A DNA stretch of 64,000 nucleotides from Nitrospirota bacterium (GTDB lineage Bacteria > Nitrospirota > UBA9217): contig CAVUCU010000001.1 of NCBI GenBank assembly GCA_963740085.1, positions 1,120,001 through 1,184,000 on the forward strand, written 5' to 3'. The notes beneath the pieces were generated by a model. That model ran no database searches. It was not told the origin of the DNA and saw only the letters and a program-made list of their open reading frames with translations. This document shows, piece by piece, positions 25,442-55,905 of this stretch; the first letter of the stretch is position 1; the number at the start of each line of letters is the position of its first letter. The translations under genes and the position numbers were made by a program.

Positions 25442-26012
25442 GTTCTTCTGCCTTTTCTGTGGGTCTCTTAATTACGGGTATCGCTTTTTATTCTTCATGA
25501 ACAATCTGTTTCCCGAATGTTATCTAAGTTGGCCATTGTCCCAGGTGTGCATGGATTTTTTTGGGCAGCTCATCACTCGGCCGCGCAGCATGCCGGGAAG
25601 ATGTACAGCACCTCCACCCTGATATGCAGGACTCGCATCACTCCACCCTCGCCCTTTAAAAAAGGGCTCGGCCGTGTCTGCCTTGTCTTGTTCTGGTAAC
25701 TATGATCTGTGCTGCATTGCTCTGCGCGGCTTTCGCTCAGAGCTACCCGGCGCAGGGGAACGGCAGAACTCTTTGCCTTTCCAGAAGCCCCTGCATCCCA
25801 TGAACAGGTTCGCGCACAAGCATGCCAAGGGAGAAAAGACCGAAGTTGCCACAAAGCCAGGCAGACACACCGTGCTCTTGCGATAACGCGGGTGCAGGCG
25901 GCCAATCTAAGGGAAGTGCTGCGACACTCGAAAGGCTTATTATCAATACCGGCAATCATGCCCTGCGCGGAGCTGTGAACTGGGGTGCAGAATAAAATAG
26001 GACCGCGACATG
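25442..26012. ncRNA. Copy 1 of a repeated non-coding structured element (candidate ncRNA or MITE)
   Basis: Colinear and highly similar to about 55223-55855; compensatory base changes in stems; no credible ORF. Confidence 0.6.
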
Positions 26013-26077
26013 ATAAAAAAGGCACGGCACGATGGTGAGCCTGAGAGAACTATACGGTGAAGGTCTTTGCGCAGGTA

Positions 26078-26263
26078 TCATATCCCATGGCAGGCGGAAC
26101 AGAGGTCCGGCAGGCGAAGCTTACCCTTGGTGTCGGCTCCTTTTGCCGCTGCATTATGCTGGATGACTCCCTCCTGGTGCGGGTTGTGACAGGTGGAGCA
26201 GGTAACACGCCCGCGCGGCACGATCGGCAGGATGACAGAGAGCCTTTCTTCGGCTTTATTCAT
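26078..26263 (-). pseudogene. C-terminal fragment of a multiheme cytochrome c
   Basis: CSTCHNPH and CSACH; no signal peptide or upstream part found. Confidence 0.6.
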
Positions 26264-26284
26264 ATTGTTGAAGGTGCACGCGCT

Positions 26285-27211
26285 CTAAGCCTTCAGCATC
26301 TCCTCGATCGTTATCTGCACCGAATCGCAGAGCGAGGGAAGATCGTAGCCGCCTTCGAGCACGAATATCACCGGACAGGAAGCGCAGGAACAGGAATCCA
26401 GGATGCTCCGGACGATCGCGCGGATGCCTTCATGCGTGACACGAATGTTCGCGTGGGTGTCGTTCACATGGATGTCGTAGCCGGCGGACACGAGGATCAT
26501 GTCCGGATTGACCTGTCGAACAATGCTGGGAAGGATATTTTGATAGACATAGATATAATCTTTATCGCCCGACCCCGCCAATATCGGCATATTGTACGTG
26601 AAACCCGCGCCCTTGCCCCTGCCCCGCTCCATGTCCTTGCCCGAACCGGGATAGTAGGGGTACTGGTGCGTGCTGAAATAAAAAACGGCATCATCCTCTT
26701 CGAAGATGTGCTGCGTTCCGTTCCCATGGTGGGCGTCGAAGTCGATGATGAACACGCGCTCATACCCCTGGGCCAGGGCATACCGGGCGCCGATCGCGAC
26801 ATTGTTGAAGATGCAGAACCCCATGCCCCGGTCCGCCTCGGCGTGGTGCCCGGGAGGCCGTATTGCGCAGAACGCGCGCTCGATGGTTCCCTTCAGGCAT
26901 TGGTCCACCGCCTCCATGACCGCGCCCGCGGCATGGAGCGCCGCCTCAAGCGTTCCCGGAGACAGATACGTGTCCGGATCCAGCTCTCCTGCTCCGAAGT
27001 TTTTGATCTTCTCAATGTACTCGCGCGTATGCACGCGGGCGAGGTCCTCAATGCCGGCCCGGCGCGGCTTCAGGAGGATCAGGTCGGGCCAGAAGCGGGA
27101 GGTTTTAAGGATGGCGTGAATGGCCTCGAGCCGGTCTTTGGAGTCGGGATGCCACACCGGCGGCTCGTGTCGCAGGAAGACTTCATCGTAGACGAACCCG
27201 ACTCTTTTCAT
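26285..27211 (-). CDS. Histone deacetylase family protein (AcuC/AphA-like)
   Basis: RPPGHHA, GFCIFNNVA, DFDAHHGNGTQ, SAGYD and LEGGY motifs. Confidence 0.95.
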   Translation of the reverse strand: MKRVGFVYDEVFLRHEPPVWHPDSKDRLEAIHAILKTSRFWPDLILLKPRRAGIEDLARVHTREYIEKIKNFGAGELDPDTYLSPGTLEAALHAAGAVMEAVDQCLKGTIERAFCAIRPPGHHAEADRGMGFCIFNNVAIGARYALAQGYERVFIIDFDAHHGNGTQHIFEEDDAVFYFSTHQYPYYPGSGKDMERGRGKGAGFTYNMPILAGSGDKDYIYVYQNILPSIVRQVNPDMILVSAGYDIHVNDTHANIRVTHEGIRAIVRSILDSCSCASCPVIFVLEGGYDLPSLCDSVQITIEEMLKA

Positions 27212-27267
27212 AAAAGGATCTTACCCTCGCTTCAGGGCATTGCCGGAGCAACGGCGGAAACACCCGA

Positions 27268-27849
27268 TCAATAGTGGAAAGCCTGGAGATCCGCCTTCAT
27301 GCGCTCAACGGCGGCCCGGAGCGACGTTGCGGAAGGCAGGGACGGCTTCTCCCCGAGGGTTGACCTGACGAGTTCGTCAGCCGCGGCGGACAGCACCGCC
27401 TGCTGTTCCTTGAGACGGACGATTTTTTCACGGATTCCTCTCCGCATGCCGTCCAGCTCCTCGGCCAGCAATTGGAACTCTTCCTCTTTACTGAGACTGA
27501 CCTCGCTCGCCAGATCGCCGCCGCCAATTCTCATAATGTCCTTTTTGATGGAATAGAGCGGCGGGGAAAGCCTCTTCCAGAGAGAATTGATGGTAGTGGC
27601 CAGGATGGCGGCGAATACCAGCAATGAGATCACGTGAACGCCGACCGTGACCGGCAGCAGCAGTTCGCTCGTCGTTTTAATATCGATGTAGGATGAATAG
27701 CGTATTGCATCCAACCTTTTTCCCGCCAGGTAGGAAAACAGCATGATCGTGGCCGCCGCCCATATGGCTGCAACGGCGACAAATCTCAGGATAAAACGCG
27801 ATTGAAAATCTTTATCGATAAAATATTTTTTTCTGTTAATGGCCGGCAT
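27268..27849 (-). CDS. Short 2-TM HAMP-domain membrane protein
   Basis: RKKYFIDKDFQ N-terminus, two transmembrane helices, GDL...EF..LA HAMP pattern and coiled coil. Confidence 0.75.
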   Translation of the reverse strand: MPAINRKKYFIDKDFQSRFILRFVAVAAIWAAATIMLFSYLAGKRLDAIRYSSYIDIKTTSELLLPVTVGVHVISLLVFAAILATTINSLWKRLSPPLYSIKKDIMRIGGGDLASEVSLSKEEEFQLLAEELDGMRRGIREKIVRLKEQQAVLSAAADELVRSTLGEKPSLPSATSLRAAVERMKADLQAFHY

Positions 27850-27864
27850 GATTGGCTCCCGTAT

Positions 27865-28437
27865 TTATGTTCTCATCTCCGAAAGACTGCGCTCGATTTT
27901 TTTAACGTTATTCGACAGGTCTCCCGTTATCTGTTTGAGCGCAACCCCGTCCTTGTCCTGTTGGATGAGGTCGGACACTTTTTTCGACTGACTGTCAATG
28001 GCGGCAAGTGCGTCCCTGACCGCATGAATGCGGCCCCGGTATTGCGAGGCCATCTCATTCAGCAGGTCCGCCATGTCCGTAAGGTTGTCCTTCCGGCGAA
28101 ATTTGATATTGCCGGTCAGATCGCCCTGGGCGATCCTGGCTGCCTCCAGGCCGATACGGTAAGCCGGGCCGACTATGCGGTGGGAATAGACCAGATGAAG
28201 CGCCACCATCGCCAGAACGATGAGAACAGAGGTAACGGCATAGAGCATCGCAACTCTCCAGAACAGTACGTTCCCGATCTCGCGCACCTGGGCCTGTACG
28301 TTATGATAGCCTTCGCCAAGATCCGCAGGGAACGACCAGAACACGCCCCATCCGGTGATCACGGCGCCGAGCACTACGATCGCCAGCGAGTTAATAAAGA
28401 GAAACAACCGGTAATTTCTTCGGGTGGTGAGTCCCAT
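27865..28437 (-). CDS. Short 2-TM HAMP-domain membrane protein
   Basis: SHRIVGP.YR...GDL...FRRKD..D.A..LN HAMP pattern. Confidence 0.78.
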   Translation of the reverse strand: MGLTTRRNYRLFLFINSLAIVVLGAVITGWGVFWSFPADLGEGYHNVQAQVREIGNVLFWRVAMLYAVTSVLIVLAMVALHLVYSHRIVGPAYRIGLEAARIAQGDLTGNIKFRRKDNLTDMADLLNEMASQYRGRIHAVRDALAAIDSQSKKVSDLIQQDKDGVALKQITGDLSNNVKKIERSLSEMRT

Positions 28438-28678
28438 GGCACGCCTCCTGGTTCAGGATCACTTTCGTTCTTATACGGAATACTTTAACAAAAGTCTTCC
28501 AATAGTGCAAGGATCATTAACGTGAAATGAAAATGCGGCTTGCTTTGGTCCGGGTAACTTGATATCATTGGGATACGATCATGATGCTTTACCATGCATC
28601 AGCTGTGTTCAACATAACCGGACAGGAAGATGAATAGAATGAGCATGACATCGTTCGCTCGCAATTTTTAAGGAGCAC

Positions 28679-29822: not shown

Positions 29823-29889
29823 GGTGCCCTCAACTCATCGCATTCGTCGGATATCTTCTTCGAGACCCCTCATTCCCGCTCATCGCGTC

Positions 29890-30165
29890 TTATCGGGTTG
29901 TGCCGCTCCCTATCTCGACCGGTTGTGTGTGGCAGCGCTGACAATCCAGCAAGGGAAATGCGACCTTGTCATGGCAAACGCCGCAGTATTGACCGTTGAC
30001 AATCTGAAACAGGGTATACTTCGTTGCGCCCTTCTTCACGTTGGGAAATATCTCCGGGTGGCAGACCTCGCAGCCGTTCCGGACAGCGTGTTTCTTATGC
30101 GAAAAAAGCACCCTGTCCATCCAGGGTGCTTTTAAATCTATCAGAAAGTCCTTTTGCGGTTTCAA
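29890..30165 (-). pseudogene. c7-type triheme cytochrome domain, probably a truncated gene
   Basis: FSHKKH, CEVCH, CGVCH..VAFPL and CQRCH; no signal peptide upstream. Confidence 0.6.
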
Positions 30166-30301
30166 GTGTGGCCGCAGAGTGTTGTTCAGCAGCCTGTCAG
30201 ATGAACGATGATATCCGGAGCGGTGGTTTTTTTACCTCTCTGTGCCGGGGGATGCGCCTCGCACCACGACCACGAGCCGGCATGCTTTGTTGAAAAGGGC
30301 G

Positions 30302-31207: not shown

Positions 31208-31214
31208 GATTGCA

Positions 31215-32511
31215 TTACCTCTTCAGCTGTTCGTGGCACTGGACGCAGAGATCCATGCCGAATTGAAAGTGGGCCAGGCGTTTCTGGTCAGATCCGTGCG
31301 ATTTATGGCAGCTCAGGCAGTCGAGCGTCAGGTTCTTGTTCCTCGGGTCTATTGCCTTTTCTCCTATCGGGTGCGACGAATGATGCGTGAAGTCGTGACA
31401 GGTGCTGCAGAGCGCAATGACGTCCTTGTCATTCAGCAGGAGGACATTATCGGAGGCATGAGGAGAATGGCAGGTCGTGCACATCCCTTGCTCCACGGGA
31501 ACGTGCTTGGAAAGGGCCTTCTCCTGTCTCGTGATCGTGTCCTTGTGACAACCACCGCAGACGTCCTTCATCGAGTCCCCCTATCAGGAGGGACGCCTGC
31601 TTCGAAGCGTGAGGGTTATGACAGTTCAGACAGCCCCGACGGTCCAGCAGGGGCCAGTGGATCCGGTTCTTCGACAAGGCCGAATTGACCATGTCGTAGT
31701 GGCATCCGCGGCAGAGCTCAAAGCCGGTCTTCTTGGTCTTGAACGGCGTTGTTGAGGTGGGCTCTTCGTGACACTGGTTGCACAACTTATTTGCGACCGG
31801 GGGGTGCACGGTATCATAGAGCAGGGAGCTCCGCGATGACCCGTGCGGATTATGGCACGTCGTGCAACGGGCATTGCCGACAGGATAATTCGCATGGGCT
31901 TTGAGGAAGAACGGCTTGTCGGTCTGATGGCAGTCCTTGCAGAGGCCGGGGACGTCCTTCTTGAGGAGATGAAGGGCCGCGGTCGACGCGTGGGGATCGT
32001 GGCACGTCAGGCATCCCGATGACACGGGCTTGTGCTTGCGTTTCGCCTTGTCTATTGCGTCGCCCAGTTCCTTGTGGCACTCAACGCAGAGTTTGTTGCC
32101 GGCAAGTTTGAGATTGTACTTGTTGGCCGCCGCGTGGGGGTCATGACATTTGACACAGCCTCCCTCTGCAACGACCTTGTGACTGCTCTTCGCCTTTTCG
32201 GGTATTACCGCCGCATGGCACGTATAGCATATCTTGCTGGTATCGGCCGTCAGAAGCTTGGCGTGTGAGGAGGTATGCGGGCTGTGGCATCCGATGCATT
32301 CTCCCTGCCTGAGCGGCGTATGCACAAAGGCGTTCTTCAGCTTTTCGGCGAACGTCGTGTGACAGCCAAGGCAGATCTTACCCTCGGCCCCGGGTTTCAG
32401 CTTGAAATTGTCCTTCGCATCCGAGCGGATGACGGCGGCCGCAAGAGAACAGGTGACGATGAGCAGTATCAAAACGATCCTGGTTTTCATATTCGACGTT
32501 ATCCTTTTCAT
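31215..32511 (-). CDS. 16-heme cytochrome c (one frameshift near 31575)
   Basis: 11 CxxCH motifs in ORF 31447-32532 and 5 in ORF 31215-31571; the ATG at 32511 overlaps the upstream stop. Confidence 0.88.
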
Positions 32512-34490
32512 TGCTTGCCCACGATATGGCATGTCTCACAGGACCGTGCAGCAAAGGGCGGATGCATCACCTGTTTGAAAAATTTCGGGTCCTTGGACGT
32601 ATGGGGATCATGGCAGTGTCTGCAATCCATGCTTTTCGGGTCGATCCCGATATGGGACTTCACGAACGAATCACGGGTAAAATCGTGACAGTTGCCGCAC
32701 AGTTCCGGTACCTTCTGGACGAGCAGGGTGGTCTGGGCCGAGAAATGGGGCATATGGCACGTCAGACAGTTCCCTTCGGCTGGAGAATGCACATTTTCCT
32801 TCCCCATCCTCTCTTTCATGTCCTTGTGGCAGGTCAGGCAGAGGTCCGGGCTCTGCGCCAGAAGAAGACTTTTCAGTTTCGACTTGTGAGGACTGTGGCA
32901 CTTCGTACACTCTCCGCCCGTGACCGGAGCATGCTTGCTGGCGCCTTCCTTAAGCGCTTTCTCCAGGTCAGGGTGGCAGGTGAAGCAGATCGCGTCCTGT
33001 TTTTGCACGAGCATCCCGCCGATGTTGCTGCCGTGCGGGTCATGGCAGGTGAGGCAATCGCCCGCGACGAATGGCGGATGATTGGTCCCCCCGACCTCCT
33101 CTTTCATGAGGTCGCCGTGGCACTGCTTGCAAAGATCGGAGCCCGAGGCCTTCAGGATCTTCGGAATGTCGGAGCCGTGGGGATTGTGGCACGCGTTGCA
33201 CTGGCCACTGGTCACCGGCTGATGGGTATAATTCCTCGCAAATTTCAGTTCCGCGTCGGAATGGCAGGAGTAGCAGACCGTGTCCATCCTGTTTTTCAGC
33301 ATATTCTGGAAATTCGAGCCATGGGGATTATGACAGGAGGTGCACATATCCGCGTCGAACGGCGAATGGGGGCTCTTGCTTTTCTTAGATTCTTTCGTCT
33401 TTTCATGGCAGGTAAAACAGAGCTCACCGTCCTTTGCCAGAAGCAATTTCTCGTTCTTGGCGGCATGGGGTGCGTGACAGGTCAGGCAGCCCTTGCCGGT
33501 GGTGACCGCGGCATGGGAGACGGCTGTCGTTTCTCCCTTGTCGGGATGACAGCTGAAACACAGCTTGTTGCCGGCATCGGCAAGGAGCTTCGAATTCTCC
33601 GAATCATGGGGATTGTGGCAGGAAAGGCACATGCCGCCCTGGAACGGCGCGTGTTCGATCTTGCCGCCGGCCTTGAGCCCGGCCTGATCGTGGCACTGAT
33701 AACAGAGCTCCCCTCCGCTGAGCGTCGTATCGAAGGGCTTATCGGAGGTTGCGGGCTTGTGACACATGTCGCAGCTCACCGCAGCCATGGGGTTATGCAC
33801 ACTTGTCTTCAGGAGCTTGGCCTGTACCGAAGAATGGGGGTTGTGACACGTTGTACAGGTCTTGCTGCGAACAGGATACCCGCCATGCGCCTTCTTGAAG
33901 GGTTCCTTCTCGCTGTCGTGACACGCCAGGCAGAGCGCAGGTTCTGCGGTCTTCAGCAGGTTCGCCTCGTCGGAGCCATGGGAAACGTGGCATACGCTGC
34001 ATCCGCCGGTCTGCAGGGGCTTATGCACCACTTTCTTTTCGAACTGTTCCCTTGCGTGGCACTGATAGCAGAGGTCGGTCCCTTCGGCTTTGAGCAGGTG
34101 GTCCGACTGCGATGCATGCGGGTTATGGCAGAGCGCGCATTGCCCGTTCTTCAGCACGCTGTGGACATGCGCCTTGGTCAAGCCGAGCTTCTCCTGGCTG
34201 TGGCAGGGGAAGCAGACCTGGTTGCCGACGCCCTTGAGAATGAGCTTGGGGACGATCCCGTGGCGGAGGTGACAACTTTCGCATTTCTTTTCTTTCGCCA
34301 CCGGATGGACATACTTCATCGAAAAATATTTTTGCTCGAATTTGGTATGGCAGTCGAGGCAGTCCTTGCGGGCGAACGTCTGTCTGTTCAACGAGGGGCC
34401 GCACGAGCTCAGGAATATCGATCCTGCAAGGACAATAAGCGCTGCCGCGGCGGCAACGGCATAGATACGGTTTTTCATGAGTGGGACCAT
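32508..34490 (-). CDS. 26-heme cytochrome c, probable lipoprotein
   Basis: 26 CxxCH motifs counted in paired CxxCH..PH / CxxCH repeats; lipobox LSSC. Confidence 0.93.
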   Translation of the reverse strand: MVPLMKNRIYAVAAAAALIVLAGSIFLSSCGPSLNRQTFARKDCLDCHTKFEQKYFSMKYVHPVAKEKKCESCHLRHGIVPKLILKGVGNQVCFPCHSQEKLGLTKAHVHSVLKNGQCALCHNPHASQSDHLLKAEGTDLCYQCHAREQFEKKVVHKPLQTGGCSVCHVSHGSDEANLLKTAEPALCLACHDSEKEPFKKAHGGYPVRSKTCTTCHNPHSSVQAKLLKTSVHNPMAAVSCDMCHKPATSDKPFDTTLSGGELCYQCHDQAGLKAGGKIEHAPFQGGMCLSCHNPHDSENSKLLADAGNKLCFSCHPDKGETTAVSHAAVTTGKGCLTCHAPHAAKNEKLLLAKDGELCFTCHEKTKESKKSKSPHSPFDADMCTSCHNPHGSNFQNMLKNRMDTVCYSCHSDAELKFARNYTHQPVTSGQCNACHNPHGSDIPKILKASGSDLCKQCHGDLMKEEVGGTNHPPFVAGDCLTCHDPHGSNIGGMLVQKQDAICFTCHPDLEKALKEGASKHAPVTGGECTKCHSPHKSKLKSLLLAQSPDLCLTCHKDMKERMGKENVHSPAEGNCLTCHMPHFSAQTTLLVQKVPELCGNCHDFTRDSFVKSHIGIDPKSMDCRHCHDPHTSKDPKFFKQVMHPPFAARSCETCHIVGKQ

Positions 34491-34513
34491 CCTGTCTCCC
34501 TGATTGCGGTTTG

Positions 34514-36220: not shown

Positions 36221-36308
36221 TAAAACTCCTTCGCTCGTGGATATTCACGATTTTACCGGTTGTTATTTTTTAAAGCAAGGCATAAATATACCACAAATCT
36301 TTTAATGT

Positions 36309-36509: not shown

Positions 36510-39500
36510 TCATTGCTGCTCGATCATTTTTCGTATTGCGCTTGCCATGTCAGCCGCAAGTGCATGGACGGTATTGATCCGCCCCCAGTCGAACAGGTAT
36601 ACGGCGTCGTCCCCTTCATTGCGGCTGCTGGACGACCATACGACCTGCTGGTTCCTTCGGTTTATCAGCAGCAGGGAAAATCCAACCTTCGGTTTGCCGG
36701 AACCGACGGCGTGCTCCCGGTAATCCAGGACCCTGCCGGTAAGGATCAGGTCTGCATTCAATTCGCCCGCTATGAGATCGGCGTCCGAAAGGGATATTCC
36801 CTCGTACATGATTATCCGGTAATCGAGCAGTTTCTCTATGATAAGGCCGGGTTCTACGACGGTGAAATGTCCTCCTTTGATAAGCTCTCTCAGGAAATGC
36901 AGCGCCATGATCTCGCCTGCATATTTCCTGCTGCTTTCATTTGTAAAGGGCATTATGGCTATCCGGGGCGGCGCGTCAGCGTCGAGCACGGTCACCGTAT
37001 GCGTCATGCGTTCACCCGGCGTTGCATTTACCGGCTTCCCGAGTGTCACGATGATCGTCTTGTTGTCTTCATAGTGTCTATCGTCAATGAGGGCCAGGGT
37101 GATGGCGCCGGTCGTTTCCCCTGCCCTGATGGTGAGGGGGCCCGGCGTCATGACCCGGTAGTTCTTCCCGTCAACTGCTGTCCCGCTTACTGTAAAGGGC
37201 ACCATCACGTCCTTGCCGTGTACGGCAGAGAGCTGCACGGTCACCACAGCCGAGCCGTTGTTCTCCCGCACTTCCTGTCCCGGCGCAGTGAAGGTCACCG
37301 TGGGCTCGGGGTCGTTGTCGATGATCGTATAGGTATGGACGGTCTGTTTGCCCAGGACCGCGTTGACGGGGTTCGAGAGCGTCACCTCGATCGTCTCGTT
37401 GTCTTCGTGGAGCTTGTCATCGATGATCCCGATGTCGATGGTCTTGGACAGCTCCCCGGGCTCGAAGACGAGCGTGCCGTTTTTGAGGGTATAGTCCGTG
37501 GTGTTCTCTGCCGTACCGCCCGTGATCGCGTATTCCACGCTGGCCCGCTTGCCGCTTGCCTCGCTCAACGATACTTCGATCTTCGCAGGGCCCTTTCCTT
37601 CATCTCCACTGGAGTCCTTCAATGTGAAGGCTACGGCCGGGGGTGGATCGTTGTCTCTGATGGTTATGATGTTGACCGGGTGCGCGCCAAGGGTCGCGTT
37701 CACCGGAGTCCCCATGGTCACGATGATCGTCTCATTGTCCTCGTAGAGGTGATCGTCTATCGGCGTGATGGTGATGGTCCCGCTTTTCTCTCCGGCCTTG
37801 ATGACCAGCGGGCCTGGCGTGATGGTGTAATCGGTCCCTTCCTGCGCTGTCCCGCTCACGGTGAAGGGCACGGTCACGTCCTTGCCGTGTATGGCGGAGA
37901 GCTGCATTGTCACCATTGCCGGCCCGTTGTTCTCCTGCACTTCCTGTCCCGGCGCAGTGAAGGTCACCGTGGGCTCGGGGTCGTTGTCGATGATCGTATA
38001 GGTATGGACGGTCTGTTTGCCCAGGACCGCGTTGACGGGGTTTGCGAGCGTCACCTCGATCGTCTCGTTGTCTTCGTGGAGCTCGTCGTCGATGATCCCG
38101 ATGTCGATGGTCTTGACTGTCTCCCCGGGCTCGAAGACGAGCGTGCCGTTCGTGAGGGTATAATCCTTGTTGTTCTCTGCCGTGCCGCCCGTGATCGCGT
38201 ATTCCACGCTGGCCCGCTTGCCGCTGGCCTCGCCCAGGGATACTTCGATCTTCGCAGGGCCCTTACCTTCATCTCCACTGGAGTCCTTCAATGTGAAGGC
38301 TACGGCCGGGGGTGGATCGTTGTCTCTGATGGTTGTGATGTTGACCGGGTGCGCGCCAAGGGTCGCGTTCACCGGAGTCCCCATGGTCATGATGATCGAC
38401 TCATTGTCCTCGTAGAGGTGATCGTCTATCGGCGTGATGGTGATGGTCCCGCTTGTCTCGCCGGCCTTGATGACCAGCGGGCCTGGCGTGATGGTGTAAT
38501 CGGCCCTTTCCTGCGCTGTCCCGCTCAAGGTGAAGGGCACGGTCACGTCCTTGCCGGAGACAACGGAGAGCTGTACTGTTACCACAGCCGGCCCGTTGTT
38601 CTCCTGCACTTCCTGTCCCGGCGCAGTGAAGGTCACCGTGGGCTCGGGGTCGTTGTCGATGATCGTATAGGTATGGACGATCTGTTTGCCCAGGATCGCG
38701 TTGACGGGGTTCGAGAGCTTCAATTCGATCGTCCTGTCGCCGCGGTAGAGCTTGTCATCGACGATCCCGATGTCGATGGTCTTGGACAGCTCCCCGGGTT
38801 CGAAGACGAGCGTGCCGTTCTTGAGGGTATAATCCTTGTTGTTCTCTGCCGTGCCGCCCGTGATCGTGTATGCCACGCTGGCCCGCTTTCCGCTCGCCTC
38901 GCTCAACGATACTTCGATCTTCGCAGGGCTCTTTCCCTCATCTCCCTGAGACTCCTGGAACAGGAAGTCGACGGCTGGAGGCGGATCATTTTCAACGATG
39001 GTCTCGGTCTGCTGGGTTTGGGCACCCGCGGTCGCGTTTACCGGCGCTTCCATGGTAACGATGATCGTCTTATTGTCCTCGTACAGCTTATTATCCATGA
39101 GGGCCAGGGTGATAGCGCCGGTCGTTTCCCCTGCCCTGATGGTGAGCGGGTTCGGGGTCATGACCCGGTAGTTCTTTCCGTCAATTGCTGTCCCGCTCAG
39201 CGTAAAAGGCACGGTCACGTCCTTGCCGGATGCGGCAGAGAGTTTCAGGGATGCGGTTACCTTTCCCATGTCCTCCTTGACTTCCTGTCCCGGCGCAGTG
39301 AAGGTCACCGTGGGCTCGGGGTCGTTGTCGATGATCGTATAGGTATGGACGGTCTGTTTGCCCGGGACCGCGTTGACGGGGTTCGAGAGCGTCACCTCGA
39401 TCGTCTCGTTGTCTTCGTGGAGCTTGTCATCGATGATCCCGATGTCGATGGTCTTGACTGTCTCCCCGGGCTCGAAGACGAGCGTGCCGTTCGTGAGGGT

Positions 39501-42500: not shown

Positions 42501-44513
42501 GATGGTGATGGTCCCGCTTTTCTCTCCGGCCTTGATGACCAGCGGGCCCGGCGTGATGGTATAATCGGTCCCTTCCTGCGCTGTCCCGCTCACGGTGAAG
42601 GGCACGGTCACGTCCTTGCCGTGTATGGCGGAGAGCTGCATTGTCACCATTGCCGGCCCGTTGTTCTCCTGCACTTCCTGTCCCGGCGCAGTGAAGGTCA
42701 CCGTGGGCTCGGGGTCGTTGTCGATGATCGTATAGGTATGGACCGTCTGTTTGCCCAGGACCGCGTTGACGGGGTTCGCGAGCGTCACCTCGATCGTCTC
42801 GTTGTCTTCGTGGAGCTCGTCGTCGATGATCCCGATGTCGATGGTCTTGACTGTCTCCCCGGGCTCGAAGACGAGCGTGCCGTTCGTGAGGGTATAATCC
42901 TTGTTGTTCTCTGCCGTGCCGCCCGTGATCGCGTATTCCACGCTGGCCCGCTTGCCGCTGGCCTCGCCCAGGGATACTTCGATCTTCGCAGGGCCCTTAC
43001 CTTCATCTCCACTGGAGTCCTTCAATGCGAAGGCTACGGCCGGGGGTGGATCGTTGTCTCTGATGGTTGTGATGTTGACCGGGTGCGCGCCCGGGGTCGC
43101 GTTCACCGGGGTCCCCATGGTCATGATGATCGACTCATTGTCCTCGTAGAGGTGATCGTCTATCGGCGTGATGGTGATGGTCCCGCTTGTCTCTCCGGCC
43201 TTGATGACCAGCGGGCCTGGCGTGATGGTGTAATCGGCCCTTTCCTGCGCTGTCCCGCTCAAGGTGAAGGGCACGGTCACGTCCTTGCCGGAGACAACGG
43301 AGAGCTGTACTGTTACCACAGCCGGCCCGTTGTTCTCCTGCACTTCCTGTCCCGGCGCAGTGAAGGTCACCGTGGGCTCGGGGTCGTTGTCGATGATCGT
43401 ATAGGTATGGACGATCTGTTTGCCCAGGATCGCGTTGACGGGGTTCGAGAGCTTCAATTCGATCGTCCTGTCGCCGCGGTAGAGCTTGTCATCGACGATC
43501 CCGATGTCGATGTCTTTGGACAGCTCCCCGGGTTCGAAGACGAGCGTGCCGTTTTTGAGGGTATAGTCGGTTTTGTTCTCTGCCGTGCCGCCCGTGATCG
43601 TGTATGCCACCGTTACTTTCCTGGGGCTGGGCGCGCTCAGCAGGACAGCTATTTTGGCGGGTGACACGCTTTCATCCCTGTCCAGCCTCCGCAACGCAAA
43701 ATTCACGAAAACGTCCCGAAGGCCGACCCCGGTCACCGGCGAGACATAGTCGACCCTGGGTTTGAATTTCCCTTCGCTCTCGTCACTATCGCTCTCAACA
43801 CCGGAGGCAAAGCCGGCGAGGGAACCCGCAAGCTCGGCCGTAGCCTTATCAAGCAGGACCTTCGGATCTTCGATCCGGCCAATGCCGAGAAGGCCCGGCG
43901 AGTCATCGCCGGACAGGGTGACGCTGTGGGCCCATTTTATCTCCGGGTTTTCCCCGGTCGAGACCAGGCGGGCAGAGAGGGCAAGTTTCGGGGGGTCCTT
44001 TTCATTGTAAAGCTCAAGATCGGTAATAAGCACTCCTGCTGCTCCGCCATCCTCCTTGAATACACGGGCATTCACCGAGCTTATACTTCCGGTATCGCGC
44101 ATGCGGATTTTTTCCATCAAACGATCCAGGTCCGCCTGCGCCATGACCTCCAATCCCTGGCCTTTCAGTTTGTCCAATAAGGCCCGATGTATCTCAGCCA
44201 GCGGAGCGGACGAGTTGCTCAGGTTCGCGATGGGTAAAACCGCGACCCGGCCGATATGGTCCACGCGAATGTCTCCGGGCGCGGGTCCTTTCACGGCCGC
44301 GCACCCCAGAAGGAGCAGAAGAACCGCGCACAGGACCGCAACAGGCATGCGGAACGTCCTTTCCCGCAGGTCCCTGGTGCGTTCGCGATCATGTTGGAAG
44401 TGGTCAGGCATTATTTTCATACGGCGGCCAACGGGCCGGTCTTCGATACCGTTATTATTTTCCGAGAGGTCCTGGAGGGTTCGAGAAATAGCGTGTGCGA
44501 AAGATGAGAACAT
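36510..44513 (-). CDS. Giant lipoprotein (about 2600 aa): CsgG/DUF799-like domain, about 20 Calx-beta repeats, second CsgG-like domain; OscG-like; split by two single-base frameshifts (about 41683 and 40978)
   Basis: Lipobox LLGC; RVAVLPIANLS and RIAIMPFTNES domains; ~111-aa repeats with GTA..DY...GTLVF.PGE..KTI.I.IIDD..HEDNET...L.NP.NA. Confidence 0.85.
37261..43610. repeat. Near-identical 1.6-kb intragenic duplication (37261-38876 and 41995-43610), built from two-domain units of about 669 bp
   Basis: Matching ends at a constant offset of 4734 bp. Confidence 0.85.
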
Positions 44514-45032: not shown

Positions 45033-45079
45033 CATGTTCCATCCGTTTATCTTAGGGGACAGCATGGCCGCTCATCCGA

Positions 45080-45865: not shown

Positions 45866-46033
45866 CCTAACCCGGACAATCCGGAACTAAAATAATGAAA
45901 CCAAAAGGCGTCTCGCGCAGAGCCGTAGCCTGCACTTGCGTGAGCGCGGCCATAAACCAAGCTCGCAGAGAACAACAAAAAAAATAGAGCCGCGATTCAT
46001 GTCTTTCTCGGCGTCTCTGCGCCTCAGCGGGAA
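45866..46033. repeat. Periodic-arm element; inverted copy of the 59.9-60.3 kb unit
   Basis: aggcgtctcgcgcagagccg...aagctcgcagagaacaac and tctttctcggcgtctctgcgcctcagcg are reverse complements of the 60 kb repeat arms. Confidence 0.7.
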
Positions 46034-46202
46034 GATGCCTTATGGATCTTGACGTGATAGAACAATAAAAGAAAAAAATGAACTGAATATCTACAAATTA
46101 AAATAAAAATGCATTGACGCTTTCAGGCTCTTCTATGTGCCTTCCATGCTTTCTGTGGCAAAAGATTCTTGCCATTGTGAGTAACCTTTGACCTATTAGC
46201 TT

Positions 46203-48452: not shown

Positions 48453-48459
48453 CGGGCTT

Positions 48460-49860: not shown

Positions 49861-50180
49861 GGGGTTCCTTTCTCAGAAGATCGGTGTAACGTCAAATAGT
49901 AACCACAGAGCGCACAGAGACATATGTAAAATTACTCAAAACCTGTGTTCTCTGTCGTTCTCTTGCTACAAGTAGTTATTCTATAAAAGCAGATTGAGCC
50001 AAAGAATGCACAGAAGATCACATCAAGAATATAAATGATTGAAAACAATAGTGTTTGGGCAATACCTAACTGAATTGGTGATTACGTTAGTCATTTCAAC
50101 TTCTTGTTTTTTTCTGTGTGAATTATGTGCTTTTTATCGCTAACTGCCGTTTACGGGTTTATTTCATTTTCAGCATTTTT

Positions 50181-50806
50181 CCTGTGTTCTTTGCGGTTAA
50201 TTGGTTCGGTCCTGAAAGTCACATAATTCTATAACTACTTAAATTGACCGCATAGAACACAAAGATCACAAGGATTTTAACGAATGAAAACATAATGGTT
50301 TCATATCTCTCCTGTTTCCCCTTCTCTGCGTTCTTTGCGTTCTTTGCGGTAAATTGGTTCAGGTCCTGGAAAGTCACATAATTCTATAACTACTCAAATT
50401 GACCGCAAAGAACACAAAGATCACAAGGATTTTAAGAATGAAAACATAATGGTTTCATATCTCTCCTGTTTCCCCTTCTCTGCGTTCTCTGCGTTCTTTG
50501 TGGTTAATTGGTTCGGTCCTGAAAGTCACATAATTCTATAACTACTTAAATTGACCGCAAAGAGCACAAAGATCAACAAGGATTTTAAGAATGAAAACAT
50601 AATGGGTTCATATCTCTCTGGTTCCCGTCCTCTGCGTTCTCTGCGTTCTCTGTGGTAAATTGGTTCGGTCCTGAAAGTCACATAATTCTATAATACTCAA
50701 ATTGACCGTCAGTAGAACACAAAGATCACAAGGATTTAAAATAAATATTTTTATCCTCTGTGTTCCCTCTGTGGTTTACTCTGCGTTCTCTGCGGTTAAT
50801 TGGTTC
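50181..50806. repeat. Tandem array of four ~153-bp units, each a periodic-arm inverted-repeat element
   Basis: Units start at 50201, 50354, 50508 and 50660 (ttggttcggtcctgaaagtcacataattc...); arms accgcaaagaacacaaagatcacaagg / ctctgcgttctttgcgttctttgcggt. Confidence 0.9.
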
Positions 50807-50817
50807 TAGCGGCAGCG

Positions 50818-52106
50818 CTATGGATATACCCCTACATGGCATTTGTTGCAAAGTGTATCCTGCGAGGGAGCAAATTTCGTCGCCGGCATGTCATAATACG
50901 CCCGCAAGGCCTCTGCCTCCGTGCGCCCCTGCCCGTAGGGCTGTTCAGGCTGCCCTTCCTGGGAATACGATCCATTGTTCTCGATAAAGCTTGTTTCAGC
51001 ATTCCATCTCATGATGCCGTCCCACCCCGACGCGTGCGCCCGGTGGCAGGTAAGGCACGTCACCTGCGCCGTTGTGTCGGGACCAGTGAGCCAGGAATCA
51101 TCGCTTTTTGCATGCGCCTTGAGGGTCGCGTAGTCCGTGATTCCCTCCTCGAAGGGAACGAGCGAAAGATAGGACGTATTCACCAATCCCGTGAGATCGC
51201 CGCTTTTAATATATGCATTATAGTTGGCCGCCTTGATTGCGCCGAGGTTGGCGGCGTTGCCTGTCGGGTGAAGCAGGTTCGTCTTCCCGGGCCAGGTTGT
51301 CGTATGCATGTCCGGGTGGCAGTTCCTGCACCACTCCGACATGCCTGCACCGTAGGCCACGCGGGTCTGCGTTGTTGCTTCCGACCTGTTGTATGTGTCC
51401 GGCGCGACGGCGGCGGGAGGATCGTTCACAAAGGCAAAACCGCCGGTCAAGGATTTCGGCAGATAGCCCTTTCCGCCCAGCATCCGGTACACACCCACCG
51501 CCTTGTTGGCTTCAGGATCGGGACTGGACGCGTAGGAGCCCGAGCCGATAATGGGGCTCCAGGTCGTGGATATGGATCCGTCGAAATTCCTCCGGTATTT
51601 TCCATGGGGGTCGTGACAGCTTATGCAGGACAAGCCATCCGAGGGATAGGTCCCGCCCGGGGCAGCGGAATAGGTGCTGTCGCTATCGTACAGGAAGTCG
51701 GCTGCCACGATATTGTGTCCATGCCTTTCTCCAAGGCTGGATATGGGCGGCAGCCCGGGACCCGGGACCCAGGAGAAGGTCTTTTTGAGCCATCCGAAAT
51801 CTCCGCCCGGCGTGAGCTGTTTGGGAGGCATGCCCTGCGGGAGCTCGCTGAACGGCGTGCTTACATGGTAGTCCGTCGGACCGATGTCGCCCGGCTGCTG
51901 ATGGCAATACAGGCAGGTTGAACTGGCATCCTGTTCCCGCAGGAGAGAAGGCCCGCTGATCGAGAGAATGTCGGTACCGTGTATCGAGTGACAAGCAACG
52001 CACGTACCGACGCCGCCGTCGTGGAAAGCCGCTGAACCGCTTTCCAGCCGATGATAATAAGGGCTGTTGTCAACAGACCCCTGATGATGGTCGTCAGTAT
52101 TTTCAT
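50818..52106 (-). CDS. OmcS-family hexaheme cytochrome, paralog 3 (frameshift in signal peptide near 52040)
   Basis: In-frame FHDGGVGTCVACHSIH, CLYCH, TPGGDFGW, CISCHDPHGKYRR, WCRNCH, CLTCHRAHASG and LCNKCH; six CxxCH motifs. Confidence 0.9.
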
Positions 52107-52211
52107 CTCATCACAGCGTAAATGCGGCATTCCAGGTGAATGCCGATACATCTGAATCCAGGGACATTACTCAGTTAAAAATCAAATTCGACTCAACATG
52201 AAAAAAAATTT

Positions 52212-52340
52212 ACCGCGAAGACGCCAAGAACGCAAAGAAATCTCTAACTCCTGGTATTTAACCGAAGAATCTTTAGCATTCCTTCGCGACCTTCGCGCCT
52301 TGGCGGTTCCAAGGTTTTGGTTCCGGGCTGTCCGGGTCAG
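52212..52340. repeat. Periodic-arm inverted-repeat element
   Basis: accgcgaagacgccaagaacgcaaag ... ccttcgcgaccttcgcgccttggcggt, followed by ggttccgggctgtccgggt. Confidence 0.8.
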
Positions 52341-52428
52341 ATAGACTTATAATTACATGAAGACAGACGAAATTGCAATAAAATAAATGGCAGAATGGAC
52401 CCGCTTATGCTCATCATAACAGCTTAGG

Positions 52429-52461
52429 AAAAAGAAGGGCTGGATTTCTCCAGCCCTTCTT
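52429..52461 (-). terminator. Intrinsic terminator after omcS paralog 2
   Basis: aagaagggctgga-tttc-tccagcccttctt hairpin with a minus-strand U tract. Confidence 0.75.
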
Positions 52462-52494
52462 AGGTACATACATTATGCTGCGACTAGGTGGATA

Positions 52495-53731
52495 TTAGTC
52501 TTTTGCGTGGCACTTGTTGCAAAGCGAACGCTGGTAGCTGGCATACTTTGTTTCGGGCTGGTTGTTGTAAGCAGCCGATGTTTCTGCCGTGGTGCGGCCC
52601 ATTGCATATTTTGCAGCTGTTGGCGATCGTGCTCGTTGAATCGGTGCCCGGCCATACGCCGTCAGCAGCGATGAACTCGCCTTCGTTCTGCCACCTGGTC
52701 ATGTGCGCGAAGCCGGTTGCATGCGCCCTGTGGCACGAAAGGCACATAACTCTGGATGACGTTGCAGCCTGTGCATTGACGGTGTTGGCTGCTGTCTGGA
52801 GGGCTGCCATGTCGGACGTATTGTCTGTCTGGAAAGGAACGATCGTGTCGAAGCCGGAAGCGCCCGTCAGACCGCTGCCCAGATAGGCGTTGTAGTTTGC
52901 TGCAACTGCTGCGCTGAAGCCCTGGTTTACCGGGTGGGTCAGCTTGGTGCTGGTGGCGCTGTGCATGTCAGGATGGCAGGTTGCGCACCAGTCGGAGATG
53001 CCGGCGCCATAGGCCTCGGCCGTCTGCGAGACTGCCTCTGTCCTGTTGTAGGTGGATGCAACGAAGCGTTGGAATGTCGCGGTGAAGGTCTTGCCGCCTG
53101 AACCGGCCGTGGAGCCCGGTCCACGAAGGAGACGGAACACGCCGACTGCCTGGCCTGCTGCCGGGAGCGTGCTGTTGGTGTAGGAGCCGGAGCCGATGAT
53201 CGGGGCGCCCGTGGTTGCCATGGCGCCAGTGGAAAGCCTTCTCAGTTTGCCATGGTTGTCATGGCAGCTGTTGCAGGAAAGCTGGGTTGCATCCATGTCG
53301 CCGCCCGGGGCGGTCGTGTTCTGCGCATCAGCAACGTAACCGGGGAGGGCGACTGCTACGACGTTGTGGCCATGTCTCTCGCCAAGTTCTGTTGAAGAGG
53401 AGCCGGACCGAGGGGACCAGGTATAGGTCTTGAGGAGCCAGCCGAAGTCGCCGCCCGGGGTCATCTGAAGCGGGGGTACGCCGGCGGTAACTGTCGGGGT
53501 GAGGATATGATAGCTGCCTGCTGATGGTGAGCCGTGGCAGGAAGCGTTCGCGCAGGTGGAGGTGATGTCCCCGGCGATAAGGAGAGCTGAGGCGCTCTGA
53601 CCGTCATGGATGTCGTGGCAGCCCATGCACTCTGCAACGCCGCCGGAATGGAACGCATAGCTTGCGGTGCTGAGGCCGATTATTACGGCAAAAGCAGCTA
53701 CAAGGATAAGACTAAATTTAACGATTTTCAT
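52495..53731 (-). CDS. omcS: OmcS-like nanowire cytochrome, paralog 2 (frameshift near 52615)
   Basis: AFHSGGVAECMGCHDIH, LQMTPGGDFGW and CLSCHRAHA; the shifted frame ends ASYQRSLCNKCHAKD*; GGAGG RBS before 53731. Confidence 0.88.
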
Positions 53732-53750
53732 TACATCCTCCTGAATTTTG

Positions 53751-53830
53751 CTCCGGCAGACCAGCCATCCCGCTTCCGGGATCTGTGACTTTGTGCCCCC
53801 ATCTTGCAATGGGTTTACTCTTTTCGGAGG
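53751..53830 (-). ncRNA. GEMM-I riboswitch, A20 (cGAMP / GEMM-Ib) type
   Basis: Minus strand cctccgaaaaGAGTAAACCCATT-GCAA-GATGGG-GGCACAAAGTCACAGATCCC..GGGATGGCTGGTCTGCCGGAG, in the omcS 5' UTR. Confidence 0.85.
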
Positions 53831-53857
53831 ATCGATTGTGCCGGCAATGCCGACATA

Positions 53858-53917
53858 TTTTACTTCTCACTTTTTACTTCTTACTTCTTACTTTTTACTT
53901 CTTACTTCTTACTTACT
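53858..53917. repeat. (TTACTTC)n heptamer tract
   Basis: About 8 degenerate ttacttc/ttacttt units. Confidence 0.85.
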
Positions 53918-53977
53918 GTCTGCTTTTTAACGACCTCGGTAGTTCATCACCTCCTTTATTTATCGTCCAGCTTGTTT

Positions 53978-54937
53978 TCAGTTGTAACTGATCCTGAAAA
54001 CGCTGACCCCTTGATTTTTTGCCTGGTTCACGAAGATCTTGTCGTTCATGACTTCCACTTGCTGCGGGGCGAAAAGGCTGCCCCGGTCTGTGCCGCGGTG
54101 TCCGAACTGCATCTGGAAATTGAAGTCCTTGTCATAGACCATGATCACGCTTTTGAGAATATCGGCCACGTAGATAAATCCCTTGTCATCCGATGCAATT
54201 CCTCCCACGACATTGAACTTTCCATCGAGGCTGCCCGGGGTGCCGAAGGATGCCACCTTGTGGTCGAGGGACATTCTGAAGGCCGCGAACAGCGTAGGCA
54301 CCGTGAAGAGCATGCTGCCGTCCCGGTCCACGTTGAAGCCGACCATTTCGTTCTTGGAATCGGGCTTGTCTTCCTTGACGAGCAAGGCCCCGACGTCATA
54401 GCCGTCTACGAATGTTCCGCTGGAATCCGTGACCACGATCTTTCTTGCCTGAAAGTCGGCAAGGTAGATGTTCCCGTTCTTGTAGACAAGACGATTCGGC
54501 CGAAGCTGTGAAAACTCCTGAGGAAGCCCCTTGAGTTCCACGGTATCCTTCAGTTCTCCGCGGTAATTACAGCGCAGCACTGAAATGATATTCCCCCTGG
54601 CATCCCATTTGGAGGAGAGCACGAGGATGTTGCCGTCCTTTTCAGCGGCAACATCGATTATGTTGCCGAGTGCCTGGTCGTTGCCGAAGCGGTAGATCTC
54701 CATGCCTACGGAATTGAATATGCTGACAGTGCCCTGGTTGATGACGTATATTTCTCCGCGCTCCTGGTCGCTGGACAGCCCCGGCCAGGTGTAGGGGATC
54801 CTGCCGGTAAAGTCGGAGAAGGTGTAGAGATAGGAAGCGTTTATTGCTGCAGTTGCATTTGTTGAGCAGAAGAGCAACAGCAGGATCGCTGTTACCGTTG
54901 CGAGGGATGTCATATTTTTTAAATGAAGGTCTTTCAT
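53978..54937 (-). CDS. Exported NHL-repeat protein directly upstream of omcS
   Basis: Signal peptide; IYLAD, GKFNVVGGIASD..G.IYVAD and FG.RG...G.LFAP repeats; GAGG RBS before 54937. Confidence 0.85.
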   Translation of the reverse strand: MKDLHLKNMTSLATVTAILLLLFCSTNATAAINASYLYTFSDFTGRIPYTWPGLSSDQERGEIYVINQGTVSIFNSVGMEIYRFGNDQALGNIIDVAAEKDGNILVLSSKWDARGNIISVLRCNYRGELKDTVELKGLPQEFSQLRPNRLVYKNGNIYLADFQARKIVVTDSSGTFVDGYDVGALLVKEDKPDSKNEMVGFNVDRDGSMLFTVPTLFAAFRMSLDHKVASFGTPGSLDGKFNVVGGIASDDKGFIYVADILKSVIMVYDKDFNFQMQFGHRGTDRGSLFAPQQVEVMNDKIFVNQAKNQGVSVFRISYN

Positions 54938-54965
54938 TTTTTCCTCTGCATTTGACTGCTTATAG

Positions 54966-54981
54966 TGCAATGGCTATGCCA
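54966..54981 (-). promoter_or_regulatory. Sigma-54 -24/-12 promoter for the NHL-omcS operon
   Basis: Minus strand TGGCATAGCCATTGCA; IHF-like tttcaatatgtta just upstream. Confidence 0.7.
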
Positions 54982-55222
54982 TGAGATTAACCACATATAA
55001 CATATTGAAAGTGTTATGTTTATCTTTTGGAATGGGAATTTAAACATACGTGTATCTGGTCAAATGACCATTCTCCTATAGTCATATTCCCATAAGGACT
55101 GCTTAAAACAGGGTTTCTATCGTTTGGGGCAAAACAGGGGAAATTATTGCGGTAAAGAGGGGGGAATAAGCCGCAAGAGGCCGATCCGGGAACGTGCGGG
55201 GTTGGGTAAAGCTTTTAAAATT

Positions 55223-55905
55223 GGATCTTCTGACTTTTATGTGGGTCGTTTAACAGCAAGTACCGCTATTTATTCAACATCAATAGTCTGTTTTCTGAAT
55301 ATCATCTCAGTTGGCACTGTCCCACTTGTGCATCGATTTTTTTGGGCAGCTCATCGCTCGGCCGCGCAGCATGCAGGGATATATACTGTACTCAGCCCTG
55401 ATATGCAGGTCTCGCATCACTCCACCCTCACCCTTTGAAAAAGGGTTCGGCCGTGTCTGCCTTGTCTTGTTCTTGCAACTACGATCTGTGCAGCATTGCT
55501 CTGCGCATCTTTCGTTCAGAGCTACCCGGCGCAGGGGAGAGGCAGAATTTTAAAGGCTACCCCACTAAGTGCAGAATTAACCTCAACGGGATTTGGGGAG
55601 ATACTCATATCTTTGCCGTTCCAGAAGCCCCTGCATCCCATGAACAGGTTCGCGCACAAGCCATGGTAAGGTAGAAAAGAACGATGTTGCCACAAAGCCA
55701 GGCAGACGCACCGTGCTCTTGCGATAACGCGGGTGCAGGCGGCCAATCTAAGGGAAGCGCTGCGATGCTCGAAAAAGCTCGTTATCAGTACCGGCAATCA
55801 TGCCCTGCGCGGAGCTGTGAACTGGGGTGCAGAAAAAAAATAGGATCGTGATATGTGCCGAGTTAAGAACAGATAAAAACGACCCACACAAAACCCGGAA
55901 GACCC
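55223..55905. mobile_element. Copy 2 of the repeated structured non-coding element, bounded by imperfect 29-bp terminal inverted repeats (MITE-like)
   Basis: ggatcttctgacttttatgtgggtcgttt ... aaacgacccacacaaaacccggaagaccc (24/29 complementary); core homologous to 25442-26012. Confidence 0.6.

Follow-up and report, generated by a model that had tools for sequence, protein, structure and literature searches.

Insertion sequences of the ISL3 family are defined by terminal inverted repeats that start with GG, by AT-rich target duplications of 8 bp and by a DDE_Tnp_ISL3 transposase. Modular organization is known from the BOX repeats of Streptococcus pneumoniae, which combine a few kinds of sub-unit in variable number and order. 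The miniature elements named TIMEs depend on a transposase family other than ISL3 and generate 5-bp duplications. They are presented, in an excerpt of PMC4133298, as mosaic, Tn3-derived and non-autonomous. According to a passage of PMC10969869, transcripts of the Correia elements of Neisseria and the ERIC elements of enterobacteria fold into stable hairpins, whose cutting by RNase III or RNase E alters the levels of neighbouring mRNAs; the same passage mentions BOX for possible T-box-like motifs.

The repeat analyzed here occurs twice in the window, a 64,000-nucleotide stretch of a Nitrospirota genome. It is best explained, at a probability that we put at about 80%, as a MITE mobilized by an ISL3 transposase and carrying folded modules as its passenger. 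No published description of this element was found in the literature on Nitrospirota, Geobacter or ISL3 MITEs, supplements aside.

Copies, ends and partner insertion sequence

The two same-orientation copies reported in an earlier note on this DNA were confirmed, with copy 1 starting at 25441, one base before the noted position. They are ∼90% identical, and a repeat search of the window returned a 157-nt core pair (25612-25768 and 55391-55547) at 90% identity. The imperfect 29-bp terminal inverted repeats ascribed to copy 2 are present (24 of 29 positions match), as is its insertion of ∼60 nt at a hairpin tip, which measures 57 columns in a pairwise alignment or 62 nt by BLAST and is placed at a central ggcagaa/tctttgcc palindrome. 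The 8-bp direct repeats around copy 2 had been missed. In copy 1, homology to the other copies ends at 26012, and a search of that side gave no terminal repeat match. Since its right end is lost, its target duplication cannot be scored, and the loss of the right inverted repeat has probably rendered it immobile.

Table 1. Features of the two element copies (positions in the window)
Feature	Position	Strand	Remarks
MITE copy 1	25441..26012	+	572 bp; left end intact, right inverted repeat absent
Copy 1 left terminal inverted repeat (IRL)	25441..25469	+	5 mismatches vs copy 2 IRL; family TIR pattern, 0 mismatches
Copy 1 L module	25547..25769	- (inferred sense)	L HMM positions 1-224, E 4e-78
Copy 1 R module	25770..25997	+ (inferred sense)	R HMM positions 1-211, E 2.2e-68; row of alignment A2
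Copy 2 left target-site duplication TTAAAATT	55215..55222	.	read in sequence
MITE copy 2	55223..55905	+	complete, 683 bp
Copy 2 IRL	55223..55251	+	24/29 complementary to 55877-55905
Copy 2 L module	55328..55547	-	L HMM positions 1-223, E 3.7e-72; inverted relative of R
Extra segment, copy 2	55548..55609	+	62 nt at head-to-head junction; sub-family of copies only
Copy 2 R module	55610..55839	+	R HMM positions 1-211, E 2.1e-66; first row of A2
Copy 2 right terminal inverted repeat (IRR)	55877..55905	-	pairs with IRL at 24/29
Copy 2 right target-site duplication TTAAAATT	55906..55913	.	read in sequence; perfect 8-bp match to left

The BLASTN search for further copies that had been proposed revealed 12 near-full copies and fragments in the host genome (44 BLAST pieces, 45 matches), the best of which match copy 2 with E = 0 to 1e-250. 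Within the Nitrospirota family, 46 of 64 genomes matched the element at E<=0.001 and 18 did not. The terminal repeat pattern was present in 39 of the 64, with 19 hits in the host genome and 51 in genome G048, while the reversed pattern used as a control gave one hit overall. Perfect 8-bp duplications, 84% A+T, were found at 15 of 23 IRL-IRR pairs (11 of 17 MITE-sized, 4 of 6 IS-sized). A degenerate transposase, which the earlier note had named as a refuting find, was not detected inside the element by tblastn with the ISL3 transposase (E<=10), and the only ORFs there are short and unconserved between copies. Terminal repeats, duplications, many copies and the lack of an internal transposase bear out the suggestion of a mobile element of MITE type.

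Empty sites were sought in two ways. The left flank (54300-55214) had no DNA-level counterpart in the eight other genomes of the genus, and among mixed-organism metagenome contigs from four DNA runs none joined the two flanks. One of these contigs spans the left junction (55100-55333) with a single difference, and the summed depth of the element bins was several-fold above that of the flanks. Viral contigs yielded one match, limited to an 18-nt motif; the module was absent from them.

A 1378-bp insertion sequence with near-identical ends and the target duplication TGATATCT was identified in related genomes, and its ORF matches the Pfam families DDE_Tnp_ISL3 (3.6e-72) and HTH_Tnp_ISL3. Its left end is identical to the IRL of copy 2 at 23 of 25 positions and its right end to the IRR at 29 of 32; just 25-32 nt per end are shared with the MITE, the interiors being unrelated. 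The 1378-bp end-to-end spacing recurs in 7 of the 30 ISL3 loci examined, and none of the 30 contains an R module. ISL3 transposase was found in 21 of the 64 family genomes. There was no match in the host genome (98.5% complete) or in G048, which is also MITE-rich. The proposed search for an autonomous partner thus succeeded in relatives and failed in the host, whose copies appear now stranded. The case for current activity is weakened by this; since orphan MITEs are common, MITE membership is unaffected.

This is almost certainly, judging from the ends and duplications, a MITE family moved in trans by an ISL3-family transposase with duplication of 8 bp. The transposase would bind the 25-29-bp terminal inverted repeats and excise the element, which would insert into AT-rich DNA, 8 bp being duplicated. 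The 1378-bp insertion sequence would be the autonomous counterpart, and the interior a passenger of non-IS origin. A TnpB/IscB guide RNA and an IS110 bridge RNA were also considered and rejected, there being no cognate gene beside the window copies: no TnpB zinc-ribbon match was obtained in the genome, and none of its four IS110-family genes adjoins these copies. One IS110-family gene is nested in another element copy, as a later insertion.

The placement of the copies at the two ends of a cytochrome island, as described earlier, did not hold. CXXCH motifs mark the genes at 31447-34490, 50818-53809 and 55991-57271, so copy 2 sits within the cytochrome-rich stretch, and the association looks coincidental because copies occupy many other genome sites. 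An OmcS-like cytochrome gene precedes copy 2, which lies 28 nt beyond the gene's terminator and 253 nt short of the next gene; copy 1 ends 66 nt before a gene for 564 aa. We rejected a composite transposon that would enclose the cytochrome genes between the left end of copy 1 and the right end of copy 2: the latter copy is flanked by a duplication of its own, and the outer 8-mers are unlike (ATAAAAAA vs TTAAAATT). In Nitrospirota MAGs, these repeats account for many puzzling signals of "structured" intergenic sequence, and masking them is advisable before a search for riboswitches or sRNAs; they also break assemblies.

Head-to-head modules and their predicted fold

The interior, as read from profile matches, consists of two related modules of ∼220 nt placed head to head, L being an inverted relative of R. 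The L HMM aligns to the opposite strand of an R unit over positions 7-223 of 224 (E 9.1e-12), and the R HMM matches L units in reverse, weakly. In one metagenome contig the 62-nt segment is missing and 55547 is joined directly to 55610. R modules also occur without L, both in further elements with ISL3 ends, where they adjoin the right terminus, and as short tandem arrays in other genera; this reuse indicates a modular family. Between copies, modules have been swapped, inverted or deleted in mosaic fashion, and one metagenome variant has the entire R interior replaced by 16 nt. The R unit is trailed by a conserved A-rich tail and an AGGATC(G/A)TG motif. The module was found in 43 of 45 Nitrospirota-titled loci and in none of 35 others. 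No recurrent partner protein gene was seen among the 10 ORFs neighbouring the tandem arrays, all of them ordinary genes, including AsmA/YhdP-like, GGDEF and T2SS ATPase genes.

A long rod with interruptions is predicted for each self-folding module. It comprises a closing helix of ∼27 bp, in which an internal loop and a U-G pair are fixed, and hairpins further in. The proposed covariation alignment was built from 57 R units of several genera, less than 93% identical (alignment A2), in which 88.2% of cells are paired. Both sides change in 17 of 42 pairs compared with 8.4 in shuffles, and in 67 cells compared with 24.1, with none of 500 shuffles reaching either observed value; such shuffle statistics are inflated by related sequences, and kinship alone can beat every shuffle without structure. 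Slid controls gave 9-11 pairs and 9-28 cells. Compensatory change therefore exceeds both kinds of control. The U-G pair is kept in 56 of the 57 sequences, 3 of 10 outer closing-helix pairs are invariant, and in one sub-group (12 of 57) the outer helix contains a bulge or a C-C mismatch. The arms of this helix are nearly invariant, which fits DNA recognition by a protein as well as it fits an RNA.

The consensus fold energy of R is lower on the plus strand (-83.0 vs -75.6) and that of L on the minus strand (-85.1 vs -80.1). Among pairs predicted on both strands, to which the tally was restricted because single-strand prediction is circular, G-U prevails over A-C in 50 vs 31 cells and 15 vs 8 columns. 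One pair appears as U-G (28), C-G (15) or U-A (3) and never as A-C. The strand signal is modest.

A search at the Rfam gathering score gave no match inside either copy, and at E<=10 there was none within 55223-55905; four related loci returned five weak, chance-level hits, all below half the gathering score. The element had not been recognized as RNase P, tmRNA or a group I/II intron, and in keeping with this no Rfam family matches it; covariance models of other families, including HEARO, GOLLD, ROOL and 6S, did not match either. Scans found no sigma-70-like promoter or terminator attributable to the element. Candidate sigma-54/sigma-70 promoter motifs, and a reading of the AGGATC(G/A)TG tail as a start-codon signal, were discarded for unfit spacings. 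Single R units between same-strand genes are sense in 11 cases and antisense in 14 (p = 0.69), an absence of bias that speaks against selection by the host for a strand-specific role in mRNA. R units occupy 17 convergent and 4 divergent regions. An apparent bias toward convergent downstream genes (56 vs 22) disappeared when counts were made per intergenic region, with arrays collapsed.

Explanations for the conserved fold

The folded modules are supported by sequence comparison, and from it we infer a biological role. Selection on a single strand quite probably maintains the fold, the strand being plus for R and minus for L. The role judged most likely, still at somewhat less than even odds, is that read-through transcripts would form stable double-stranded rods that are processed by RNase, with a Correia/ERIC-like effect on neighbouring mRNAs and no dedicated host function; if transcribed, the rods could change respiratory-gene expression. 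It is less likely, and in our view unlikely in itself, that the hairpins help the element to spread by acting as single-stranded DNA. It is doubtful, too, that the R, L and U modules form a new structured nucleic-acid class of one uncultured Nitrospirota family, whose rod (RNA or single-stranded DNA), with its invariant closing helix, symmetric-looking internal loop and U-G pair, would be a protein-binding platform with ISL3-ended MITEs as vehicles; if so, the transposon would be spreading a functional folded unit and not junk.

The earlier note had favoured a conserved folded RNA. One of its compensatory pairs is genuine (Gccctt..aagggC vs Accctt..aagggT), and the fold is indeed maintained by compensatory change, within two self-closing ∼220-nt modules. 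A single transposon-borne gene for a large structured non-coding RNA, spanning all 570-680 nt and held by long-range stems, is scarcely credible. The complementarities behind that proposal do exist in copy 2 (8/8 at 114-121/612-619 and at 140-147/583-590, 13/16 at 233-248/470-485), and the central palindrome has the extra 62 nt at its tip; however, the complementarities arise for free because the two halves are related by inversion, and the R half is conserved without L in other genera and in arrays. The supposed pairing of agtg..cact vs agcg..tgct also failed, as the T/C at 25917/55758 covaries instead, within its own module, with the final A/G of 'gcagacA/G' (A-U in 29 and G-C in 12 of 57 sequences). 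In the 12 aligned copies, variation of this A/G is not accompanied by change in its proposed L partner. In 11 copies from the genome itself the consensus fold uses local and not long-range helices, and the whole-element fold shows no strand preference (-115.3 vs -119.7). Smaller genes, for a new trans-acting or protein-binding RNA of ∼220 nt spread by MITEs in the manner of tRNA- or 7SL-derived SINEs, would suit the covariation above controls, the invariant closing helix with its fixed loop and U-G pair (56/57), the conserved tail and motif, the confinement to one bacterial family (43/45 vs 0/35 loci) and the lack of an Rfam match. We consider them improbable: promoter-like site and terminator were both not found, the 18 of 64 family genomes without a match show that the module is not essential, no conserved 'master' locus was seen, no protein gene recurs among the 10 ORFs by the arrays, and the distribution (convergent 17, divergent 4) is that of a selfish intergenic repeat.

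DNA palindromes can gain compensatory changes by template switching, without selection. There is a small but appreciable chance that the fold is functionless, consisting of old nested palindromes kept complementary by DNA-level events, for instance template switching in quasi-palindromes or inter-copy recombination, with the covariation reflecting sub-family history. Such an origin would agree with the mosaic exchange of modules, the variant with its R interior reduced to 16 nt, the unbiased orientation, the better conservation of arms than interior and the ability of related sequences to outdo all shuffles. Perfecting of palindromes should, however, erase mismatches, yet different genera have retained both the internal loop and the U-G pair (56/57); U-G intermediates connect C-G and U-A at one pair from which A-C is absent, and the energetically favoured strand of R is opposite to that of L, as homology predicts. 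The family is a clean natural example of conserved folded modules being shuffled by a transposon, one that could help to tell element-serving from host-serving folds.

Comparison with described elements

With ISL3 insertion sequences and their MITE derivatives the element has in common the 25-29-bp terminal inverted repeats starting with GG, the 8-bp AT-rich duplications and the DDE_Tnp_ISL3 transposase of the partner; unlike in those insertion sequences, whose interior is unshared, the passenger here is a pair of predicted structured modules. BOX resembles it in modular make-up but lacks ISL3 ends, and its module sequences and sizes are unrelated. TIMEs employ another transposase family and duplicate 5 bp, whereas the duplications here are of 8 bp. 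As in the portion of PMC4133298 that describes TIMEs, only the ends are common with the IS or transposon partner, and the interiors are foreign mosaics. Correia and ERIC, as characterized in part of PMC10969869, are likewise small, multi-copy, intergenic and bounded by terminal inverted repeats. They are, however, single hairpins of 100-155 bp built by those repeats, whereas the present element would form internal rods of ∼220 nt, two per element.

Ends, duplications and spread of the element

Whole-length alignment confirmed the two same-orientation copies described in the earlier note, and the best reading of them is a selfish ISL3-type MITE (a non-autonomous transposon) with passenger modules that keep a rod fold. 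A repeat search of the window gave a 157-nt core common to both copies (90% identity), and copy 2 carries a mid-element surplus of 57-62 nt relative to copy 1. The imperfect 29-bp terminal inverted repeats reported for copy 2 match at 24/29 positions, and the 8-bp direct repeat around this copy is the hallmark of transposition. Copy 1 retains the left repeat; beyond 26012 it shares no homology with any other copy, and a search for its right inverted repeat found none. A 36-nt fragment of a U-type module (55179-55214), also seen beside many other copies in the same genome and in the relative G048, lies immediately left of copy 2, which was thus inserted next to, or into, the remains of an older repeat.

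Features of the two copies and of their surroundings (window positions)
Feature	Position	Strand or orientation	Remark
MITE copy 1	25441-26012	same as copy 2	whole-length alignment with copy 2
MITE copy 2	55223-55905	same as copy 1	whole-length alignment with copy 1
Direct repeat TTAAAATT, 8 bp	55215-55222, 55906-55913		both sides of copy 2
L module of copy 2	55328-55547	antisense	
R module of copy 2	55610-55839	sense	
Two c-di-GMP-I-type riboswitch aptamers	57293-57372, 53752-53829	minus	Rfam scan

In several relatives the same ends occur at a spacing of 1378 bp. One such pair (L055:301-1678, in a relative) has the duplication TGATATCT, and the L055 ORF matches DDE_Tnp_ISL3 (3.6e-72) and HTH_Tnp_ISL3. 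Perfect 8-bp duplications, with an A+T content of 84%, were present at 15 of the 23 left-right end pairs examined (11/17 MITE-sized, 4/6 IS-sized). The sequence common to the MITE and the 1378-bp IS amounts to just 25-32 nt per end, and a degenerate transposase, the alternative named in the earlier note, was not found inside the MITE (tblastn with the ISL3 transposase, E<=10). The ISL3 transposase was identified in 21/64 genomes of the bacterial family; it is absent from the window's own genome (98.5% complete), and the local MITE copies therefore now look stranded. Nor was it found in G048, the most MITE-rich relative (51 end hits, 86% complete).

BLASTN for further copies, as the earlier note had proposed, yielded 44-45 matches to copy 2 in its own genome, comprising 12 near-full copies plus fragments. 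Copy 2 has matches in 46/64 family genomes (E<=0.001), and the terminal-repeat pattern (<=2 mismatches) is present in 39/64; the reversed pattern, used as a control, gave 1 hit across all genomes. The R module was detected by HMM in 43/45 Nitrospirota-titled loci and in 0/35 loci titled otherwise, which match the 18-nt search motif only, as does one viral contig. By record title and HMM check, the modules are confined to uncultured Nitrospirota. DNA metagenome contigs over the region contained no empty site. Outside the window, a copy of 2139 bp (locus L060, G000:C1:1497009-1499147) has an intact duplication, AAAAGACT; nested in this MITE variant is a 402-aa IS110-family ORF, in which the domains DEDD_Tnp_IS110 and Transposase_20 were recognised. 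Upstream of this ORF, a stretch of 32 nt agrees at 31/32 positions with an insert in the R module of the window copies.

Interior modules and their predicted rod fold

The modules were defined on an alignment of the 12 own copies, between which blocks are swapped or inserted as units. The L HMM, over its positions 7-223 of 224, matched an R unit in opposite orientation (E 9.1e-12), and the R HMM gave weak reverse matches to L units; judged by these matches, the L module is an inverted relative of the R module. The element layout is therefore IRL - L (antisense) - junction - R (sense) - IRR, where IRL and IRR are the terminal inverted repeats, and the 62-nt extra segment of copy 2 is located at the head-to-head junction of L and R. 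In other genera R occurs without L and forms, with a different module (U) upstream of it, ISL3-ended elements of ~520 bp. A second MITE variant in the own genome has two U-type modules in inverted order. Tandem arrays of R modules (period 427-460 bp) lie between ordinary genes in two same-genus genomes. Such arrays (L050-L054, from G047 and G049) contain 2-3 U + R units with 95-97% matches and lack ISL3 ends between units. In metagenome contigs (runs X3 and X4), the R interior (163 nt, 55644-55808) is replaced by a 16-nt hairpin; this variant keeps the outer helix and has a summed depth of 61.9 in X3.

The predicted consensus fold of 57 R units from several genera (alignment A2, <93% identical) is a long interrupted rod. 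Its outer helix has a U-G pair in 56/57 sequences, and its other parts are a fixed internal loop, second and third helices (12-13 bp and GCAUGC-type, respectively) and inner hairpins. In the 42-pair structure, 88.2% of cells were paired (shuffles, mean 84.9%; slid controls, 26-46%), 17 pairs changed on both sides (shuffles 8.4, 0 of 500 reaching 17; slid 9-11) and 67 cells changed on both sides (shuffles 24.1, 0 of 500 reaching 67; slid 9-28), figures that overstate the case because the structure was derived from A2 itself and the sequences are related. Even so, the compensated pairs are clear in the alignment: columns 47-290 (A-U 28, G-C 16), 61-276 (C-G 48, U-A 5, U-G 3) and 121-187 (A-U 29, G-C 12). 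Counting against the fold, columns 45-292 are mismatched or bulged in 12/57 sequences.

The earlier note had seen in the repeat a candidate large structured RNA or MITE with covarying stems. Compensatory changes are indeed found in the R rod (17 of 42 pairs, against 8.4 in shuffles), and the complementarity of the long-range stems is real, but a single large RNA is not needed for them, since the L and R halves are inverted relatives. Consensus fold energies favoured the plus strand for R (-83.0 vs -75.6, 61 sequences) and the minus strand for L (-85.1 vs -80.1, 25 sequences), which agrees with the prediction from inverse homology; the whole element had no strand preference (-115.3 vs -119.7). 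Because counting wobbles on a one-strand structure would be circular, the count was restricted to pairs predicted for either strand alike (38 pairs), and there G-U exceeded A-C (50 vs 31 cells, 15 vs 8 columns). As a pointer to the folded strand this excess is suggestive only, and because single-stranded DNA also tolerates G-T wobbles, it does not prove the RNA nature of the fold.

Genomic setting and possible role

Copy 2 lies 28 nt beyond the terminator (55941-55968, minus) of the OmcS-like gene 55991-57271. This multihaem gene and another OmcS-like one at 52484-53809 each have an aptamer directly upstream, one a GGC variant (60.2 bits) and the other c-di-GMP-I (56.3 bits). In Geobacter, extracellular cytochromes are under riboswitch control, and the arrangement in this Nitrospirota genome mirrors it. 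Two genes lying side by side (31447-34490, minus) contain 11 and 26 CXXCH haem-binding motifs. Tandem repeats, ~10-11 units of 669-672 bp (sub-period 336 bp, 37003-43719), lie inside the very long minus-strand ORFs 36510-40931 and 41682-44513; next to the cytochrome genes there is thus a giant protein made of repeats. Another intergenic repeat family (labelled D11-D13, D15, D18, I3 and I5), unrelated to the MITE, consists of ~152-162-bp units repeated a few times in tandem (50157-50806, 59896-60276) and has inverted matches ~14 kb away (45978-46033, 84-93% complementary).

No Rfam family matched the element (cmscan), and simple scans found no promoter-like sites in either copy. Gene context was assessed with a crude codon-bias gene caller, arrays being collapsed to intergenic regions. 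Of 90 regions with R units, 44 were dropped (two-module elements, or one side without a called gene); the other 46 were convergent (17), tandem (25) or divergent (4). In tandem regions the R unit was sense in 11 and antisense in 14 (p = 0.69), and R units thus show no host-directed orientation. By the region counts, the units avoid promoter regions in the manner of selfish repeats.

Literature searches gave no earlier account of this element. The more interesting point is that a transposon family retains, in different genera, a 220-nt rod whose arms are invariant. Most likely, the fold of these passenger modules would take effect when neighbouring transcription reads through the element. In this it may resemble the Correia and ERIC elements as described in a review.
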